64,000 nt of DNA from the NCBI GenBank assembly GCA_016199085.1, contig JACQHJ010000003.1, forward strand, positions 103,517 to 167,516. Direction: 5' to 3'. The notes beneath the pieces are model-generated. The model was not told the origin of the DNA and searched no databases. It was given only the letters and a program-made list of their open reading frames with translations. Made by a program: the position numbers and the translations under genes. Below, one piece after another: positions 3,936 to 63,667 of this stretch; within the stretch, counting starts at the first letter, position 1; every line of letters begins with the position of its first letter. The DNA comes from Candidatus Levyibacteriota bacterium. GTDB lineage: Bacteria; Patescibacteriota; Microgenomatia; Levybacterales; UBA12049.

Positions 3936-4888
3936 GAGGTTTGTCTCCAGTATTCAAGAATTTCCTTTAAGGTAGCATCCAATGGAATTTGCGGTTTCCA
4001 GCCTGTTAGAGAATTAATTTTTGTATTGTCACATAAAAGCTCTGGGTTATCGCTTGGACGAAGAAGGGCTGGGTCTACTTCAACCTTAATTTTGGAATCT
4101 GAAAAAGAGAGTAAAATATTTAAGACATCTGACATCTTGTATGATCTTCCAGAACCTATGTTATAAACCTCTCCCGAAATACCTTTTTCCATTAAAAGAA
4201 CATAAGCCTGCATCATATCTTTCACGTCTGTAAAGTCCCTTTTGGACTCAAGGTTTCCGACCGTAAGAACAGGTTCTCTTTTGCCTTTTTCGATTTCTGC
4301 AATTTTTTTGGCAAAAGCGCTCGTTGCAAACTGGTCTGTCTGACCGGGACCGATATGATTAAAAGGTCTGACTCTAACAATATCCATTGAATAAGCCATA
4401 AAATACTGAAGGCCTATAAAATCTTGGGTAAGTTTTGAAACTGCATAAGGACTAATTGGTCTTAACGCCGTATCTTCATCAATGGGAAGATCTTTTGCAT
4501 CCACTTTTCCGTAGACTTCTGCCGATGAAATAATCATAATCCTTGGTTTAAGATCCAAGCTTCTGACTGCTTCCAAAAGATTTAATTGGGAATTGATATT
4601 ATTGGTCATAACCACGCTTGGCTCGCTAAAACTTTGGGCAGAAGACGCTATTGCTGCCAAGTGATAAATCTGATCAGGCTTAACTTTAGTTAAAACCTCC
4701 AGTACTGCCTTACTATCCATTAGATCAAGCTGGAAAAGGTTTAAATTATTCTTTATATCTTCTATTAAACTGAGGTTTTTCCCTAAGTGGTATGTTCCAG
4801 CCACCTCTCCCTTTTTAGACATGGTGAGGTTTCGGGCAAGATAACTACCCGCAAATCCACTAATCCCTGTAATAAGGATTTTTCTCAT
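3932..4888 (-). CDS. rmd: GDP-4-dehydro-6-deoxy-D-mannose reductase (Rmd-like short-chain epimerase/reductase)
   Basis: ITGISGFAGSYLA, PYAVSKL, RVRPFNHIGPGQ and VGNLESKRDFTDVKD match the pattern of Pseudomonas Rmd. It is convergent with gmd. Confidence 0.65.
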   Translation of the reverse strand: MRKILITGISGFAGSYLARNLTMSKKGEVAGTYHLGKNLSLIEDIKNNLNLFQLDLMDSKAVLEVLTKVKPDQIYHLAAIASSAQSFSEPSVVMTNNINSQLNLLEAVRSLDLKPRIMIISSAEVYGKVDAKDLPIDEDTALRPISPYAVSKLTQDFIGLQYFMAYSMDIVRVRPFNHIGPGQTDQFATSAFAKKIAEIEKGKREPVLTVGNLESKRDFTDVKDMMQAYVLLMEKGISGEVYNIGSGRSYKMSDVLNILLSFSDSKIKVEVDPALLRPSDNPELLCDNTKINSLTGWKPQIPLDATLKEILEYWRQTS

Positions 4889-6180
4889 TATCTTCCAACT
4901 CCCTGATAGGTAATCTCGAGTCTTTTAACTTCCTGCGGATTATAAATGTTTCTTCCGTCAAGTATAACCGGTTTTTTCATTACCTCTTTTATTTTTGCAA
5001 GATCAAGCTGTTTAAATTCATTCCATTCTGTAAGAACTATTAAAAGATCAGCGTCTCTTGCAGCCGAATATGAATCTTCACAAAACTCTACACCTGAAAA
5101 GATTTTTTTGGCATTTTCCATTGCAACCGGATCATAGGCTTTTATTTTTGCGCCATCCTTTAAAAGAGCGTTGATTATGGGAATTGACGGAGCATCTCTC
5201 ATGTCATCGGTGTTAGGCTTAAATGACAGTCCCAAAACACCAATCGTTGCGCCTTTAACATTGTTTCCTAGAAGTTTTTTGGCTTTGACAACTATGTCAT
5301 CCATTGCATCTGAATTTATTTTATCCACGGCTTTTAAAAGTTCGAAGTCATAACCATAAGAGTCGGCAATTGAGATTAACGCTTTGACGTCTTTTGGGAA
5401 GCAGGAACCCCCAAAACCTGCGCCTGGGGAAAGGAACTGATTTCCGATTCTTGCGTCATAACCTATTCCTTCCAGCACCTTTAGTCCGTCAGCTTCTGAT
5501 GCCTCGCTAAGTTTTGCAATTGCGTTTGAAAAAGATATTTTTGTAGCCAAAAATGCATTGGCAGCGTATTTAATCATCTCAGCTGTTTCAATATTTGTTA
5601 AAACATAATTTCCGTCAATTGGCTCGTGGAGTTCTACTAATAATTCCCGGGCTTTTTGGCTGTCTGTTCCGATGACTATTCTATCGGGATGCAACGTGTC
5701 TGATATTGCCTGACCTTCTCTTAAAAATTCAGGGACAGAGCCAAGGTCGTATTCGGCCTTTTGGGGTTTTACCTTTTCTATAATTTCCCGTGTCTTTTTA
5801 TTTGTTCCGACAGGCACTGTGCTTTTTGTGACAACAACCGTATATCCGTCAAGATTCTTACCTATCTTTTCGGCGACTTCAAAGACAACAGAAAGATCTG
5901 CTTCTCCATTTTGTTTTGGAGGAGTACCAACGGCAATGAAGACCACTTTTGAGGAAGGAATCGCCTGGTCATAATTAAGAGTAAACAAAAGCCTTCCTGC
6001 GTTAACATTTCTTTGGACGATTTCCGAAAGACCCGGTTCGTAGATTGGGATTATGCCTTTTTTAAGGTTTTCTATTTTTTCCTTGGTGTGTCCTATTACC
6101 CAGACAGTGTTTCCAAGATCTGCAAAAACAGCTGCTGTGACCAATCCCACATATCCGTGCCCTACAAAAGTTATTGTCAT
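4888..6180 (-). CDS. ugd: UDP-glucose 6-dehydrogenase
   Basis: ITFVGHGYVGLVTAAVFADLGN and the catalytic GFGGSCFPKD motif. Confidence 0.9.
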   Translation of the reverse strand: MTITFVGHGYVGLVTAAVFADLGNTVWVIGHTKEKIENLKKGIIPIYEPGLSEIVQRNVNAGRLLFTLNYDQAIPSSKVVFIAVGTPPKQNGEADLSVVFEVAEKIGKNLDGYTVVVTKSTVPVGTNKKTREIIEKVKPQKAEYDLGSVPEFLREGQAISDTLHPDRIVIGTDSQKARELLVELHEPIDGNYVLTNIETAEMIKYAANAFLATKISFSNAIAKLSEASEADGLKVLEGIGYDARIGNQFLSPGAGFGGSCFPKDVKALISIADSYGYDFELLKAVDKINSDAMDDIVVKAKKLLGNNVKGATIGVLGLSFKPNTDDMRDAPSIPIINALLKDGAKIKAYDPVAMENAKKIFSGVEFCEDSYSAARDADLLIVLTEWNEFKQLDLAKIKEVMKKPVILDGRNIYNPQEVKRLEITYQGVGR

Positions 6181-7046
6181 AAGTTTTCCTTTATAATAGA
6201 AAGTCCTTCTTCAAGTGTATGCATTACTACGCCAAGCCTTCTTATTTTAGCATTGTTCAAAGCTGATGAAAAGGGCTCAGGGGGACGACCCACTAAAAAT
6301 TCTTTTCTCGTAGTTTTAGATACCAAGCCCTGATCAAGATTGAATGTCTTTGCGATTAATAAAACCGCATCATACATACTTATGATTTGACTTCCGACGG
6401 CGTGATACACGCCCGTTTCGTCTTTTTCAATTAAAGTGTCTATTGCCAAACCCAGATCGTCGATAAAGGTGGGGGTAACCAATCTGTCTTCTAAAACTGC
6501 AATTGGTTTTTTCTCGGATAGCCAAGTTTTAAAAAATCTTACAAAATCCGGCTTTTCAAATGAAGCCCTGTATGGATATGCGAGCCTTATAATTAACCAA
6601 GGCGTTTGAAGTTGATTAACTATCTTTTCCGCCTCATATTTAGTTTTTGCATAGAAACTCAAAGGGTTTGGTACTGATCTTTCGCTAAAACCACCCACTG
6701 GCATATCGTCTCCTCCCAAAACCAAATCCGTTGAGAAATAAATTAATTTTTTACTTAGTTTACTGCAGGCTTTTGCGACATTGTCTGTTCCGACTACATT
6801 TATTTTCCAAGACTGGCTTTTTTCTCCCAAATCTCTCTCTTTCTCTGCCTGCTTTACATCGGTATAAGCAGCAAGATGCAAAACTATGTCTGCATCAAAA
6901 GAAGATATTGCTTTTAAGACAGAGTCGTAATCAGTAATATCAGCTCCTGTTGATCTGCTGATGTTTTCAAAAGTGTGTTTTTCTTTAAGAAGATCTACTA
7001 TTCTTGAGCCTATCAGGCCATTTAAGCCTGTTCCTAAAATTTTCAT
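6177..7046 (-). CDS. rmlD: dTDP-4-dehydrorhamnose reductase
   Basis: MKILGTGLNGLIGSRIVDLL...ADITDYDSV is the RmlD N-terminal pattern. There is a 4-bp overlap with ugd. Confidence 0.75.
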   Translation of the reverse strand: MKILGTGLNGLIGSRIVDLLKEKHTFENISRSTGADITDYDSVLKAISSFDADIVLHLAAYTDVKQAEKERDLGEKSQSWKINVVGTDNVAKACSKLSKKLIYFSTDLVLGGDDMPVGGFSERSVPNPLSFYAKTKYEAEKIVNQLQTPWLIIRLAYPYRASFEKPDFVRFFKTWLSEKKPIAVLEDRLVTPTFIDDLGLAIDTLIEKDETGVYHAVGSQIISMYDAVLLIAKTFNLDQGLVSKTTRKEFLVGRPPEPFSSALNNAKIRRLGVVMHTLEEGLSIIKENL

Positions 7047-7067
7047 AAGAAAAAGTTTGGCAATACA

Positions 7068-8087
7068 CTAAAGACCGTCATTGCCAAATTGTTTAGCGTA
7101 GTAATCCTTAAATTCCCCTGATTTGATTTTCCTCCACCATTCTTCGTTTTCTCTGTACCAATCAATTGTAATCTTAAGACCGTCCTCAAAATTGTGTTTT
7201 GGTTCCCAACCAAGCTCTTTTCGTATCTTTGACCAGTCGATGTCATATCTGCGATCGTTTCCTGGCCTATCAGCGACCATTTGAATCAGATCCTCATCTT
7301 TACCCATTAAAGAAAGAATTTTTTTAACAGTATCAAGATTTGACATACCGCTTTTTAACCCTCCTACCAAATACGTCTCGCCTATTTTTCCTTTTTCCAA
7401 AATGAGTTCAATTGCCGATATATGGTCTTCGACAAATAACCAGTCCCTTTCATTTTTCCCGTCTCCATGAATTGGGATTTTTTTGTCCTCCAACGCATTA
7501 GTTATAGCAAGGGGAATAAGCTTTTCGGGATACATTGCGGGACCGAAATTATTCGAGCAGTTGCTGATTGTTATGGGAAGGTTATAGGTATAAAAATATG
7601 CCCTGACCAAGTGATCCGATCCTGCTTTTGTAGCAGAATAGGGACTTCTGGGATTGTATTTTGTTTCCTCGTTAAACTTATGATCTTTATCAAGTTCCAA
7701 TGTTCCGAAAACTTCATCTGTTGAAATATGATGGAATCTTTGAATTTTATGTTTTTTGGCAACTTCCAAAAGAGTATAGGTTCCAACCAAATTTGACTGG
7801 ATAAAAGGCCATGGATCCATGATCGATCTGTCAACGTGGGTTTCGGCTGCAAAATGGACAACAATGCCGACTCCGTTCATGATCTTTTCTACCAAGGGCA
7901 TGTCAGATATATCGCCTTTAACAAATTCATAATTGGGGCTGTCTATTACCTGCTGAAGATTTACAAGGCTTCCGGCATAAGTGAGGTTATCGAGGTTGAC
8001 AATATTGTCGTCGGGATGGTTTTTGATCCAATAGTTGATAAAGTGTGAGCCGATAAATCCTGCTCCGCCGGTGACCAAAAGCTTCAT
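7068..8087 (-). CDS. rmlB: dTDP-glucose 4,6-dehydratase
   Basis: MKLLVTGGAGFIGSHF and HFAAETHVDRS, with RmlB-like sequence throughout. Confidence 0.9.
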   Translation of the reverse strand: MKLLVTGGAGFIGSHFINYWIKNHPDDNIVNLDNLTYAGSLVNLQQVIDSPNYEFVKGDISDMPLVEKIMNGVGIVVHFAAETHVDRSIMDPWPFIQSNLVGTYTLLEVAKKHKIQRFHHISTDEVFGTLELDKDHKFNEETKYNPRSPYSATKAGSDHLVRAYFYTYNLPITISNCSNNFGPAMYPEKLIPLAITNALEDKKIPIHGDGKNERDWLFVEDHISAIELILEKGKIGETYLVGGLKSGMSNLDTVKKILSLMGKDEDLIQMVADRPGNDRRYDIDWSKIRKELGWEPKHNFEDGLKITIDWYRENEEWWRKIKSGEFKDYYAKQFGNDGL

Positions 8088-60411: not shown

Positions 60412-60933
60412 CTAATTATACCGATTTCGTATTAATTGGTCAACAACTTCTTTGATTGTATCCCAGTTAAATCCGCGGGAAGCAAGAAATCTAACGAGCT
60501 TTTCATATTGTTTTTGAGGTTCATCGTTTTTAAGTCTTGGCAATTTTTTCTTGGCAATTTTTTTTGCTTTATCCAGGTCACTTTCTGTCTCTACGGATTT
60601 ATCTTGTAATATTTCGTCAACAAGATCTTTATCTATTCCCTTTTGGGCAAGTTCTAATTTAATAAGTCTTTGTGCTTTAGGTCTAAATTTTGTTCTTTGT
60701 TCTATCCACCACTTGGAAAAATCAGTATCGTTTATGAAATTATGTTCCTTAAGGCTTTCAATAATTCTTTTAATAGTTAGATCATCTGCTTTTTTCTTAA
60801 TTAAATAGTCTCTGACTTCTTTTTCGCTTCGGGGTCTATACGACAGAAATTTATAGGATTTATTGAGGAGCTTTTCAAAATTATCCATTAAAGATTTACT
60901 CTTCTTTTGCTTCTTCCACTCCGACTTCAACAC
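60412..60933 (-). CDS. recX: RecA regulator RecX
   Basis: Immediately downstream of recA and overlapping it. The helical repeat protein has a RecX-like N-terminus ([20 protein letters not shown]). Confidence 0.75.
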
Positions 60934-61978
60934 GAGCAGGTGTAGTTTTACTTACGGTCATTATCTGCTCAACAATCTTTTTGGCAACATCTGGTTTTTC
61001 TTTTAAGAAAGCAATTGAGGCCTGTTTTCCCTGGCCAAGCATTAATTCACCGTATCTAAAGAATGCTCCGGATTTACTAATTATTCCCATATCTACTCCA
61101 ACATCCATTATTCCGCCTTCTCTTGAAATTCCGGTGTCTCCGTAGACGTCAAATTCTGCAATTCTAAAAGGAGAGGAAACTTTGTTTTTAACAATCTTTG
61201 CTCTATGTCTACTGCCTATTACCCTGTCTCCTTCTTTAAGGCTTTCAATTTTTCGAATATCTATTCTGACTGAGGAATAAAATTTTAAAGCAAGTCCTCC
61301 TGTTGTAGTCTCGGGATTTCCAAACATGATTCCAATTTTTTGTCTTAATTGGTTTGTAAAAATAACAACTGTTTTTGATTTGGAAATTACAGCCGTTAGC
61401 TTTCTTAAAGCCTGGGACATCAGTCTTGCCTGAAGACCCATGACAGCGTCTCCCATTTCACCCTCAATTTCAGCCCTTGGGACCAAAGCTGCAACGCTGT
61501 CAATAACTAAAACATCAACTCCACCCGATCTTATCAAGCTTTCTGCAATTTCCAAAGCCTGTTCTCCCGTATCCGGCTGGGAAATTAATAAATCATCAAG
61601 CTTTATTCCAATCCTTTCAGCCCACAGCGGATCAAGTGCATGTTCTGCGTCAATAAAGGCTGCAACGCCTCCGTGTTTTTGGGCTTGGGCAATAATTGAA
61701 AGACAGACTGTAGTTTTTCCGGAAGCTTCAGGACCGTAAATTTCGATGATTCTACCCCTTGGCACTCCCCCTACCCCGAGCGCTAAATCTAAGGGAAGAC
61801 AGCCTGTGGAGATAACCGAGATATCAAGTTTTTGCCCTATGTCTCCAAACCTCATAATGGAGCCCCTACCGTATTGTTTTTCGATTTGTTCCATTGCAAG
61901 CTTGACAGCTTCCATCTTTCCGGAGGGTTGGACTTGACCGTTGGGCATCGATTTGGTTGGATTTGCAGTGCGCGCCAT
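60896..61978 (-). CDS. recA: Recombinase RecA
   Basis: Walker [10 protein letters not shown], and [10 protein letters not shown]. Canonical RecA throughout. Confidence 0.95.
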
Positions 61979-62003
61979 AGCGTGTTTATTGTAACAACTT
62001 TTT

Positions 62004-62012
62004 GTTATAATG
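62004..62012 (+). promoter_or_regulatory. Extended -10-like element (TGtTATAAT) about 19 nt upstream of the tRNA-like gene
   Basis: tgttataat read from sequence at 62004-62012. Confidence 0.35.
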
Positions 62013-62030
62013 CAATATGTAAAACCGTTA

Positions 62031-62104
62031 CGGGGAATAGCTCAGATAGATAGAGCGCGCGCATGGGGTGCGTGAGGTCGCTGGGGCGGAACCAGTTTCC
62101 CCGA
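62031..62104 (+). tRNA. tRNA-Pro(GGG)-like gene with a non-canonical D-loop (no G18G19) and T-loop (GGCGGAA instead of TTCRANY); no encoded CCA
   Basis: Manual fold of 74 nt. Acceptor stem CGGGGAA/TTCCCCG (7 bp). U8, A9. D-stem GCTC/GAGC with loop AGATAGATA. Anticodon stem CGCGC/GCGTG with loop A-T-GGG-G-T (U33, anticodon GGG, G37). Variable loop AGGTC. T-stem GCTGG/CCAGT with loop GGCGGAA. Discriminator A. Confidence 0.5.
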
Positions 62105-62177
62105 CTAATGCGATAATCTATATTTAGAGTTTACAGTTGATTAGCTAACATCTCTTATTCTAACCTCCATTTTTATG

Positions 62178-62206
62178 TTGACAAACAAAGCATATTGCAG
62201 TATATT
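62178..62206 (+). promoter_or_regulatory. Near-consensus sigma70 promoter TTGACA-N17-TATATT driving the 62233 ORF
   Basis: ttgaca at 62178-62183, a 17-nt spacer, tatatt at 62201-62206. The ORF ATG lies 27 nt downstream. Confidence 0.55.
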
Positions 62207-62232
62207 ATGGCCGTACTGTCCAATATACCTTT

Positions 62233-62829
62233 ATGGCAGATACAGAAAAAGAGCATTCACAATCGTATACAGAATTAGTCGAAGCATTTAATCAAGCTGC
62301 TAACTCATCTAACGCATTAATCTCCCAAGCCGCCGATCTACAAACTGAAGCACGGGCAAGATTTGAAGAATTGGCAGCACTCCGGGGACGAATGCTTGAG
62401 GAAAAGCTTAGACAAAGAGGATTGACTGTTTGTTCTGAAACGCCTGGAAGACATGATGAAAATCCAGACAGACCCGAAGATAGATTAGGGGTATTCCCCC
62501 AAGGAGAAATGCGGTTACTTTACGAAGCTGTTACTGTATGGGCAGGCGGACATGGATATGAACACTTAGAAAGAGATCCTGTGCTCAAACAACTATGCCC
62601 CCAACACTTTCCTACTAAAGGACTCAATCTAGTGTGGCCATCAGGACATTCTTCAGCAAAATTTGACATTCGAAGTGAAGTCGTTGAACACGACGGAAGA
62701 CTAGTAACATTGGTAAATGAAATTGATGTAACCAGTTTGCCGCCTCTAAGAAGGGGTTACACTCCTGATATGTATCGACATTTTGGCATTCCTAACTTAC
62801 CAACAACTCCACTTATTACTATTAGATAG
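62233..62829 (+). CDS. Hypothetical protein of atypical composition (GC-richer, Arg/Glu-rich), likely horizontally acquired; function unknown
   Basis: 198-aa ORF whose codon and base composition differ visibly from all neighbours (many CGN/GCN/CCN codons). N-terminal helical, coiled-coil-like segment. No motif recognised. Flanked by the tRNA-like gene and the strong promoter. Confidence 0.5.
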   Translation: MADTEKEHSQSYTELVEAFNQAANSSNALISQAADLQTEARARFEELAALRGRMLEEKLRQRGLTVCSETPGRHDENPDRPEDRLGVFPQGEMRLLYEAVTVWAGGHGYEHLERDPVLKQLCPQHFPTKGLNLVWPSGHSSAKFDIRSEVVEHDGRLVTLVNEIDVTSLPPLRRGYTPDMYRHFGIPNLPTTPLITIR

Positions 62830-62914
62830 AGTCTGTTCAAGGCTTATCGCTTCTACCAGATACTGAAATTTAAATTGCTTTTTAGGCCTATTTTGGCTAT
62901 AATCAACTCTACTT

Positions 62915-63667
62915 ATGATTTCACTCAGCCGTAAAAAAATGGATATTTACAGTGCGTTCCCGACGCTTAAATCAATTCCAAAGGAAAGCTTTCCCCAGTT
63001 TATTTTCATAATTCCTGACGGAAACAGAAGATATGCAAGGGAAAATGGAAAGTCCGTTCTTTGGGGGCATAAAAAAGGGCTTGACGTATGTATTTATCTT
63101 CTAAGAAGTATGAGACCGCTTCCTGTAAAAGTTGTGGGATTTTGGGGATTTTCTTCTGATAACTGGAAGAGAAATGAAAGAGAGATAAAAGGACTCATGA
63201 GTCTTTTTGAGTTATTTCTTACTAAGTATGTTGGAGAATTAATGGAGAACAATTCCAGATTCCTTCATCTTGGAAGAAGAGATAGATTACCAAAAAGATT
63301 AGTAGATAAAATTATAGAGGTTGAACAAAAAACCAGCAAGAATACCGGACAAATTGTTTGTGCAGCTTTAGATTTTGGAGGCGAAGATCAAATGATTAGA
63401 ATATTAAATAAAGCAAGACAGCTAGATAAAAATATTGAAATAACACCAGAACTATTGCATTCCTTAAGAGATGGGAATGGCCTAGTTCCATCAGCAGATT
63501 TGATTATTAGAACTTCCGAAATTAGGACATCGGATTTAGGATGGATTAATGGTAAAAATACTGTGCTTTATTTTATTCCTGAAAAGTATTTTCCAGATAT
63601 GGATAATGGTGACGTAGTAAAAGGCATTGAATTTTTCTATCAAACTGAAAGAAGACAAGGTAAATAA
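62915..63667 (+). CDS. uppS: cis-Prenyltransferase (undecaprenyl diphosphate synthase family)
   Basis: FIIPDGNRRYA (cf. IIMDGNGRWA), FSSDNWKRNEREI and IRTSEIRTSD are UppS-family motifs. The start may be the internal MDIYSAF. Confidence 0.8.
   Translation: MISLSRKKMDIYSAFPTLKSIPKESFPQFIFIIPDGNRRYARENGKSVLWGHKKGLDVCIYLLRSMRPLPVKVVGFWGFSSDNWKRNEREIKGLMSLFELFLTKYVGELMENNSRFLHLGRRDRLPKRLVDKIIEVEQKTSKNTGQIVCAALDFGGEDQMIRILNKARQLDKNIEITPELLHSLRDGNGLVPSADLIIRTSEIRTSDLGWINGKNTVLYFIPEKYFPDMDNGDVVKGIEFFYQTERRQGK

Follow-up and report, generated by a model that had tools for sequence, protein, structure and literature searches.

The divergent neighbor of recA in the window, i.e., the whole 64-kb stretch of Candidatus Levyibacteriota DNA analyzed in the current study, is a 74-nucleotide (nt) element that represents a real and conserved proline tRNA gene; the host is a groundwater ultra-small bacterium. 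We regard this gene, with somewhat more confidence than doubt, as an expressed and working allele of tRNA-Pro(GGG) whose spread occurred through intronless homing. More tentatively, and as a possibility rather than a probability, we propose that a selfish endonuclease reading tRNA genes forced the rewriting of the tRNA elbow, and that a tRNA-Pro with A18, G54, G55, and G58 would still translate and may have swept the Microgenomates by gene conversion, invisible to standard annotation. The observed basis of these proposals is a replacement confined to the tRNA and an adjacent insert, a strict coupling of a putative endonuclease gene to the variant tRNA, a single insertion site across divergent hosts, and a precise empty site in a close relative.

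62031-62104, plus strand: variant tRNA-Pro(GGG), 74 nt (sequence, fold, family covariance model R1, and family alignment)

The DNA of the element (62031-62104, plus strand) is laid out as CGGGGAA-TA-GCTC-AGATAGATA-GAGC-G-CGCGC-ATGGGGT-GCGTG-AGGTC-GCTGG-GGCGGAA-CCAGT-TTCCCCG-A, and its RNA form, with the D-loop AGAUAGAUA, reads CGGGGAA UA GCUC AGAUAGAUA GAGC G CGCGC AUGGGGU GCGUG AGGUC GCUGG GGCGGAA CCAGU UUCCCCG A. The stems comprise 7, 4, 5, and 5 bp, the variable loop is AGGUC, and CCA is not encoded. This cloverleaf is the minimum-free-energy fold (-30.9 kcal/mol; z = -2.2 versus shuffles), with U8, A14, U33, G37, and the anticodon GGG all present, and the four-stemmed element proposed in the original prediction was thus borne out by the sequence, the fold, and the pairing within the family. 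The general architecture of a tRNA is retained in full (7-bp acceptor stem, 3- to 4-bp D-stem, 5-bp anticodon and T-stems, 7-nt anticodon loop, U33, and a purine at position 37), and the core tertiary nucleotides U8, A14, R15-Y48, A21, and G53-C61 are invariant in the 17 distinct members of the family described below. The determinants of the bacterial prolyl-tRNA synthetase (ProRS) are A73, G72 (C1-G72), G35, and G36; together with G37 and the anticodon GGG, they are invariant in all members, including those of loci L057 to L061 (loci of relatives are numbered L001 onward).

The elbow is different. G18, T54, Psi55, and A58 belong to the best-conserved nucleotides in all of biology; according to textbooks, a tRNA needs them for its L-shape. 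The D-loop of the window tRNA (A14 G15 A16 U17 A18 G19 A20 U20a A21) has no GG, and its T-loop (G54 G55 C56 G57 G58 A59 A60) has neither TTC nor A58; instead of the consensus G18 G19 / T54 Psi55 C56 ... A58, the family has A18 G19 / G54 G55 C56 G57 G58. An alternative register of the T-arm that would restore TTC and A58 was looked for and does not exist in the sequence, the drawn register being fixed by three covarying T-stem pairs in the family.

As anticipated in the original prediction, standard tRNA finders fail on this gene. ARAGORN called no tRNA across the whole window and, even with thresholds set to 80%, none at 62031-62104. A search of the full window against Rfam yielded no RNA family at the gathering score, and the variant stayed unmatched at this score and also at E <= 10 when a 401-nt slice was searched. 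The variants of the window, L035, L038, and L050 fell below the curated score of the tRNA model RF00005 (29 bits) and had no match to it even at E <= 10, whereas the canonical orthologue in L017 reached 58.1 bits. ARAGORN recognizes just 2 of the 21 members of the variant family.

This family was assembled with the pattern ATGGGGT-N14-16-GGCGGAA-N6-8-CCCCGA, which was scanned over one genome per GTDB species. Of the 36 matches, 16 contain this 74-nt cloverleaf in full; the other 20 were discarded as chance matches in unrelated GC-rich genomes. Overall, the family comprises at least 21 genes of near-identical architecture in Candidatus Levybacteria and other Microgenomates of the Candidate Phyla Radiation (CPR), the hosts found by the pattern being Levy-, Curtiss-, and Shapirobacteria, other Microgenomates, and metagenome-assembled genomes (MAGs) titled "uncultured Gammaproteobacteria." The latter GTDB-representative records (L021, L032, L035, L041, L042, L046, L051, L055, and L056) show low-GC loci of the CPR type, with recA-recX-RNase Y and the variant tRNA. 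These loci, and the presence on the L032 contig of a gene for a protein listed by NCBI under Candidatus Daviesbacteria, make it probable that the Gammaproteobacteria titles are wrong.

All 357 of 357 stem cells across the 17 distinct sequences are standard pairs, and seven pairs have changed on both sides, i.e., 6:67 and 7:66 in the acceptor stem, 28:42 and 31:39 in the anticodon stem, and three pairs in the T-stem. None of 500 shuffles reached the observed values of pairing and covariation, and sliding the 3' partners out of register lowered pairing to 35 to 51%. Invariant throughout the family are U8, A14, G15, A21, G46, C48, G53-C61, the GGG anticodon, G37, C1-G72, A73, and the odd loop bases. 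A covariance model (R1) built from the family places the window element exactly at 62031-62104 (101.7 bits; E = 8e-29) and separates two classes, with variants scoring 92 to 105 bits, canonical tRNA-Pro(GGG) 31 to 51 bits, and nothing in between. The anticodon stem CGCGC/GCGUG of the window and L001 (62058-62074 in the window) is that of the local canonical Levybacteria type, while most other variants have CUCGC/GCGAG; this mixed stem may be a mosaic from partial gene conversion.

The consensus of the family D-loop is A14 G15 A16 Y17 A G N N A21. Its invariant A-G falls where G18-G19 is found when a D-loop has two bases on either side of that pair, and N-N corresponds to the normally variable positions 20 and 20a. 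We infer that the A-G is A18 G19, in which case G18 alone has been replaced (by A) and G19 has been kept with its partner C56. In this register, the deviations from a universal tRNA are A18, G54, G55, G58, and A60, while G19, C56, and G57 are kept and purines are retained at positions 18 and 58. The elbow of a tRNA is a stack of A58-G18-G57-G19-C56, whose exposed G19-C56 face is read by the ribosome, RNase P, and RNase Z (PMC4810234). In the variant, the inner contacts would be rewired and the outer G19-C56 platform and G57 preserved, and since the latter are retained, an L-shape legible to the ribosome, RNase P, RNase Z, and the CCA enzyme is plausible. The elbow loss claimed in the original prediction accordingly holds in part: the alteration of both loops is coordinated, the D-loop lacking GG and the T-loop lacking both TTC and A58, but of the two D-loop guanines only G18 is replaced, and G19 and C56 are invariant.

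The tRNA gene lies in a conserved chromosomal slot that is framed by two protein-coding genes and, in the window, also contains an ORF (open reading frame) of 198 amino acids (aa), in the order recA (minus strand), variant tRNA, 198-aa ORF, and uppS.

60896-61978, minus strand: recA (Pfam RecA, 1e-128), the divergent left neighbor that anchors the orthologous slot
62915-63667, plus strand: uppS, undecaprenyl diphosphate synthase (Pfam Prenyltransf, 6e-41), syntenic in L001, L002, L017, L018, and L020

The best matches of the window RecA are from Candidatus Levybacteria (83 to 95% identity). Loci of relatives were gathered via RecA homologues, the exact window RecA not being on record, and via the conserved 24-nt spacer TTGTAACAACTTTTTGTTATAATG; all of them contain recA with a divergent tRNA gene. 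In L002 to L006, L008 to L010, L012, L014, and L016 to L020, ARAGORN calls a 72-nt tRNA-Pro(ggg) with the T-loop TTCRATT or TCCRATT, and such a canonical gene is present in each of the 11 distinct variant-free loci, most of which are close relatives of the window. In L002, L017, and L020, uppS follows directly after the tRNA. Among the relatives first gathered, L001 alone has the window-type tRNA, with one difference, which is located in the D-loop. Each recA-adjacent locus has a single R1 match, either variant or canonical, and the two are mutually exclusive; the variant is the divergent neighbor of recA in 19 of 21 variant loci, as is the canonical gene in all canonical loci.

The two alleles share the genomic slot, the promoter spacer, the AUGGGGU loop, C1-G72, A73, G37, a near-identical anticodon stem, the lack of an encoded CCA, and the C after A73 (compared with L002 and L017). 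They differ in length (74 versus 72 nt), in the D-loop (9 versus 7 nt), in the variable loop (5 versus 4 nt), in the sequences of the D- and T-stems, and in the bases A18, G54, G55, G58, and A60 of the variant versus G18, T54, T55, A58, and Y60 of the canonical gene, the former being undetected by Rfam and the latter scoring 58 bits. A search of the window and the fetched loci for a second tRNA-Pro(GGG) found none save a truncated relic in L036, and the window insert downstream of the tRNA holds no canonical tRNA remnant, R1 giving a single match in the window at E <= 1. The relic in L036 (Curtissbacteria; 6920-7145, minus strand) lies in an arrangement of variant tRNA, 34-nt tandem duplication, the 3' two-thirds of a canonical gene, and a GIY-YIG-like ORF fragment. 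The canonical remnant (T-loop TTCGAGT) is situated about 90 nt downstream of the variant; it looks like a displaced relic of the old gene and resembles a fossil of a replacement event.

The comparison of L001, which carries the variant and an endonuclease gene, with L017, which has the canonical tRNA and an empty site, bears on the history of the locus. Their RecA proteins are 98.6% identical, and the flanks are 93% identical up to the tRNA on both sides; the window is 85 to 88% identical to both. The tRNA of L001, in contrast, equals that of the window at 73 of 74 positions and is only about 66% identical to that of L017. This discordance between tRNA and flanks shows that the tRNA segment has another history, i.e., an exchange by recombination and not slow mutation. 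The canonical 72-nt gene was replaced by recombination confined to the tRNA and the adjacent insert. No clear co-conversion tract from a donor was seen in the flanks of L001, which are L017-like right up to the tRNA.

The variant has also been maintained. Between the window and L001, 1 of 74 tRNA positions differs, versus 13 to 15.5% of the positions in the flanks, the range for recA, uppS, and the spacer being 11 to 15% (binomial P of 4e-4 to 6e-5). In eight informative loci, the variant is intact without an endonuclease gene or a remnant of one. Judging from these comparisons, the variant tRNA gene is under purifying selection. A GGG anticodon is useful in this host, because CCU and CCC together account for 51% of the proline codons in the long ORFs of the window.

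The companion of the variant is an ORF of 260 to 299 aa (roughly 280 aa) that starts 1 to 18 nt past the discriminator base in 8 of 16 informative variant loci and in none of 11 canonical loci (Fisher P = 0.008). In L001, a 281-aa ORF with Pfam HNH_repeat begins 2 nt after the tRNA. A profile of these proteins retrieved more than 1,000 homologues, with more than 120 full-length ones at E < 1e-110; those named at their source among the matches listed are CPR hypothetical proteins, except for one JGI entry, "HNH endonuclease." Four homologues (P0143, P0169, P0186, and P0130) were chosen by protein alone, and all four proved to be encoded divergently beside recA with a variant tRNA directly upstream, sharing the T-loop GGCGGAA and the D-loop motif AGAYAGNNA; the circularity of the DNA pattern is thereby removed. 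Altogether, the gene directly follows the recA-adjacent tRNA in 12 of 12 endonuclease loci, whose hosts have RecA proteins that are 62 to 86% identical, and each locus carries a complete variant, without chimeras or a canonical partner. The start lies 1 to 3 nt after the tRNA in eight of the 12. The presence/absence polymorphism with its precise empty site is seen in L001 versus L017.

The N terminus of the endonuclease contains three CxxC...CSxxC zinc ribbons followed by HNH_repeat (PF18780, "homing endonuclease associated repeat"; 1e-11 to 3e-15), a PHROG annotated as "HNH endonuclease" matches at 2e-8, and five residues of the C-terminal domain (D, H, D, E, and D) are invariant. In an AlphaFold2 model (pLDDT 89), the best fold match in the PDB is the catalytic domain of I-Bth0305I (target TM score 0.73; 3.0 A over 95 columns; probability 1.0; Foldseek E-value 0.01), followed by TnsA and a Vsr-like protein. 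Sequence identities among the endonucleases (48 to 62%) and among the RecA proteins of their hosts (62 to 86%) are uncorrelated (r = -0.06; 28 pairs), which is consistent with movement between lineages. Carriage of the cassette by phages was considered and dismissed, as neither the variant tRNA nor the endonuclease was found in IMG/VR. As predicted by gene callers, the endonuclease ORF begins at a GTG or ATG within the anticodon arm of the tRNA (position 5411 in L001 and its equivalents in L022, L038, L044, and L055); these upstream extensions fall in different frames in different loci, and the protein annotation masks the tRNA.

In the proposed mechanism, genomes without the endonuclease gene would have their canonical tRNA-Pro(GGG) gene cut by the enzyme, and repair would copy the endonuclease gene together with the neighboring variant tRNA, a process known as intronless homing. 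By virtue of its rewritten T-arm (GGTTCRATTCC to GGGGCGGAACC) and D-arm, the carrier allele would be uncuttable and hence immune, and a compensating change in the D-loop, G18A for U55G, would keep the tRNA folded and usable. The endonuclease is probably transcribed from the tRNA promoter, with a leaderless mRNA freed by tRNA 3' processing, because the ATG lies 1 to 3 nt after A73-C74 in 8 of 12 loci, too close for a promoter or a ribosome-binding site to fit in between. In the window, an unrelated 198-aa gene fills the slot, and the variant tRNA would have been kept by selection for decoding CCY codons. A mobile element had already been suspected in the original prediction, and one does appear to be involved, but its kind differs: an allele replacement associated with a putative free-standing homing endonuclease gene, not an attachment site or a decoy.

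Several points weigh against this reading. That the tRNA works in translation is deduced from its conservation and its orthologous position. Neither the endonuclease gene nor a remnant of it is present in the window, whose homing history is reconstructed from L001 and other loci. Canonical loci were sampled only among relatives of the window, and the T-loop was preset by the search pattern in 16 members, so that the four protein-sampled loci and L001 constitute the unbiased sample. Immunity would account for the departure of the loop bases from the canonical ones but not for their fixation in all 21 copies. Moreover, if the target extends across the 3' end of the tRNA into the downstream DNA, an insertion just past the tRNA could be enough to destroy it, and the changes in the tRNA therefore need not be immunity mutations. 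With respect to the enzyme, I-Bth0305I is matched in fold at a modest Foldseek E-value (0.01), the nuclease domain has no sequence-level match to solved nucleases, and the N terminus has weak zinc-finger matches only; the assignment as a nuclease is thus a qualified one, derived from this one fold match together with the domain content and the context of the gene.

Among the other explanations, the one closest to intronless homing under immunity would be that a functional but odd tRNA arose once, that the endonuclease gene was inserted beside it by chance and thereby disrupted its own target, and that the variant has been hitch-hiking by co-conversion of the adjoining 74 bp, with an elbow unrelated to immunity. 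The endonuclease gene abuts the tRNA (1 to 3 nt in 8 of 12 loci), which makes co-conversion nearly obligatory, the insertion point is the exact 3' end of the tRNA, and the loop bases are frozen and not diverse, as predicted by structural constraint and not only by escape. Nevertheless, we consider this scenario unlikely: complete variants without chimeras accompany the endonuclease in all 12 loci, even though recombination breakpoints occur at the 5' edge of the tRNA; the changed positions coincide with the DNA motif that is best conserved among tRNA genes, a motif read by a known tRNA-cluster homing endonuclease; and a slightly deleterious passenger should have been replaced in the eight endonuclease-free loci. 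The closeness of the two genes would also fit a tRNA-shaped, nontranslational "punctuation" module, at which RNase P and RNase Z free a leaderless endonuclease mRNA made from the host's tRNA promoter and whose elbow avoids EF-Tu and the ribosome or tunes processing. The position of the ATG 1 to 3 nt past the discriminator, with no room for a promoter or Shine-Dalgarno sequence, the frame differences of the callers' upstream extensions between loci, and the identity of the altered bases with those read by elbow-binding factors are in its favor. A pure processing signal would, however, need neither the invariant anticodon loop nor the ProRS and TrmD determinants, and the RNA is intact with compensatory changes in the eight endonuclease-free loci, among them the window, whose downstream ORF has a promoter-like site of its own 70 nt away. 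The module would moreover take the place of the sole tRNA-Pro(GGG) observed there, despite a 51% share of CCY among the proline codons, and we judge it to be quite unlikely.

The original prediction had pointed in two other directions. A nonproteinogenic donor of amino acids for cell wall synthesis or another nonribosomal transferase would explain the coordinated loss of G18, T54-Psi55, and A58, reminiscent of the staphylococcal cell wall tRNA-Gly, as well as the failure of standard models on the variant. This idea is disfavored and very improbable, since the variant replaces and does not supplement the canonical isoacceptor in the same recA-adjacent slot, keeps the ProRS and TrmD determinants, retains G19-C56 and all core tertiary pairs, and has a nuclease gene and not a transferase gene as its constant companion; furthermore, we know of no proline-tRNA-dependent cell wall transferase. 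A decaying pseudogene or the relic of an integrase attachment site is scarcely credible. The site is an insertion hotspot, with a serine recombinase, a reverse transcriptase, and other ORFs located right after the tRNA in relatives, and both ARAGORN and Rfam reject the variant, but decay is contradicted by 100% pairing, seven compensatory pairs, and 17 distinct copies, and by a single difference in 74 nt versus about 14% in the flanks. An attachment site or decoy is not supported, in view of a full-length, selected cloverleaf, of intact copies without a mobile gene, and of the window, in which there is no direct repeat of a partial tRNA and no integrase between recA and uppS.

Substituted elbows have precedents. 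In the nonproteinogenic tRNA-Gly of staphylococci, which serves peptidoglycan bridges, the D-loop GG and T-Psi-C are substituted, as in the variant described here. Those tRNAs are extra copies beside proteinogenic isoacceptors and are used by Fem transferases, whereas the variant replaces the sole copy at its locus, has proline identity, and keeps G19-C56. Metazoan mitochondrial tRNAs are an example of working translational tRNAs without the D/T-loop consensus (PMC4810234), but they have coevolved with ribosomes and an RNase P that are themselves altered, and entire arms are often lost, while here a single tRNA species with full arms and fixed alternative loops belongs to an otherwise ordinary bacterial set.

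The closest parallel for the genetic arrangement is SegB of phage T4. This free-standing homing endonuclease, encoded within a cluster of tRNA genes, drives the inheritance of neighboring tRNA genes, and its 27-bp site includes the 11-bp T-stem-loop motif GGTTCRANTCC (PMC2330249). With SegB and other endonucleases of intronless homing, the present system shares the gene beside tRNAs, a gene content that varies between close relatives and leaves a precise empty site, and the co-inheritance of neighboring tRNA DNA. It differs by its location on a CPR chromosome and not in a phage, by a putative nuclease that appears Vsr-like and not GIY-YIG, by being known from sequence alone, and by a carrier allele that is a wholesale rewritten tRNA instead of missing or extra tRNA genes. 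I-Bth0305I combines N-terminal DNA binding with a C-terminal Vsr-like nuclease, has a footprint of about 60 bp, and tolerates single substitutions (PMC3239194). This EDxHD family (PDB 3R3P) resembles the endonuclease described here in the C-terminal fold (TM score 0.73), the domain order, and the context of a selfish element; in contrast, there is no detectable sequence similarity, zinc ribbons and HNH_repeat stand in place of NUMOD/HTH, the gene is free-standing and not borne by an intron or intein, and the proposed target is a tRNA locus instead of recA or other protein-coding genes.

In the window, the slot of the endonuclease gene is filled by an insertion that encodes a protein of an uncharacterized family.

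62106-62861, plus strand: insertion of 756 bp that is lacking at the empty site of relatives (compared: L017 and L002, which are empty, and L001)
62178-62206, plus strand: promoter-like TTGACA-17-TATATT ahead of the 198-aa ORF (consensus scan, 11 of 12 matches; consensus match only)
62233-62829, plus strand: 198-aa ORF, uncharacterized family (homologues, coding-like GC, and AlphaFold2)

The insert is bounded by the 3' end of the tRNA (...CCCCGAC) and the uppS promoter region (ACTGAAATTTAAATTGC...), in the slot in which L001 and 11 other loci harbor the endonuclease gene; in the empty site of L017, ...CCCCGAC is joined directly to ACTTCAATTTAAATTGC. It contains no endonuclease remnant (best tblastn E of 0.24), its only blastn match among all fetched loci is to itself, and the window seems either to have lost the endonuclease gene or never to have had it. 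A word-index search with the 198-aa ORF returned only itself (P0121, Candidatus Levybacteria hypothetical protein HY344_02820), whereas an exhaustive search found 64 relatives at E <= 1e-3 with 25 to 48% identity. The AlphaFold2 model (pLDDT 94.9) shows a long N-terminal helix of 60 residues and a beta domain, and together with the 64 relatives, it rules out that the ORF is an orphan or an artifact. Searches against Pfam, PHROGs, PDB folds, and BFVD folds gave no match that would indicate a function. The ORF had been described as compositionally foreign, which is true for its GC content (42.5% versus 36.6% in the window genes) but not for its GC content at third codon positions (GC3), which is host-like (26% versus 30%); with GC1 > GC2 > GC3, its composition is coding-like, and it is only mildly foreign.

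The few bases past the 3' end of tRNA-Pro(GGG) are an insertion hotspot also in other genomes. The cargo includes a large serine recombinase with inverted repeats of about 95 nt, an RVT_1 reverse transcriptase, a 167-aa ORF, and a methyltransferase, at sites in L005 (approximately 4120-5800), L019 (1041-2084), L018 (3357-3860), and a sub-locus of L021. It adjoins a canonical tRNA except for the methyltransferase of L021, which is located next to a variant tRNA.

On the other side of the tRNA, the spacer that served to gather the loci separates it from recA.

61989-62012, no strand assigned: near-palindromic spacer TTGTAACAACTTTTTGTTATAATG between recA and the tRNA, conserved in Levybacteria loci

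The spacer is identical in the window, L001, L002, L005, L009, L012, L014, L016, L017, L018, and L019, whichever tRNA allele is present, and the longer near-palindrome at 61988-62015, which reads ATTGTAACAACTTTTTGTTATAATGCAA, is identical in all close Levybacteria loci. It includes the extended -10-like element TGTTATAAT at 62003-62011, 19 nt upstream of the tRNA 5' end. The spacer is probably the tRNA promoter and perhaps also a recA operator or a promoter region shared by both genes; on the minus strand, TACAAT 9 nt before the ATG of recA suggests a leaderless recA mRNA.

Both tRNAs and intronless homing are known kinds of things, but a variant tRNA allele tied to a putative Vsr-like homing endonuclease in the CPR is undescribed in the literature searched: full-text searches found no description of the variant tRNA family or of a coupling between endonuclease and tRNA in these bacteria. 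Since ARAGORN and Rfam miss the variant genes, tRNA-Pro(GGG) is probably underreported in CPR genomes, and the extension of neighboring ORFs into the tRNA by gene callers is a further practical consequence for annotation. The endonuclease family, with its more than 1,000 members, may supply long-site nucleases that are specific for tRNA genes. A bacterial tRNA family in which four near-universal elbow bases have been replaced would represent a natural experiment on what the elbow needs. If the link to the endonuclease is causal, a selfish element would have driven the evolution of a core structural RNA, and intronless homing would extend from phages to the chromosomes of the CPR.

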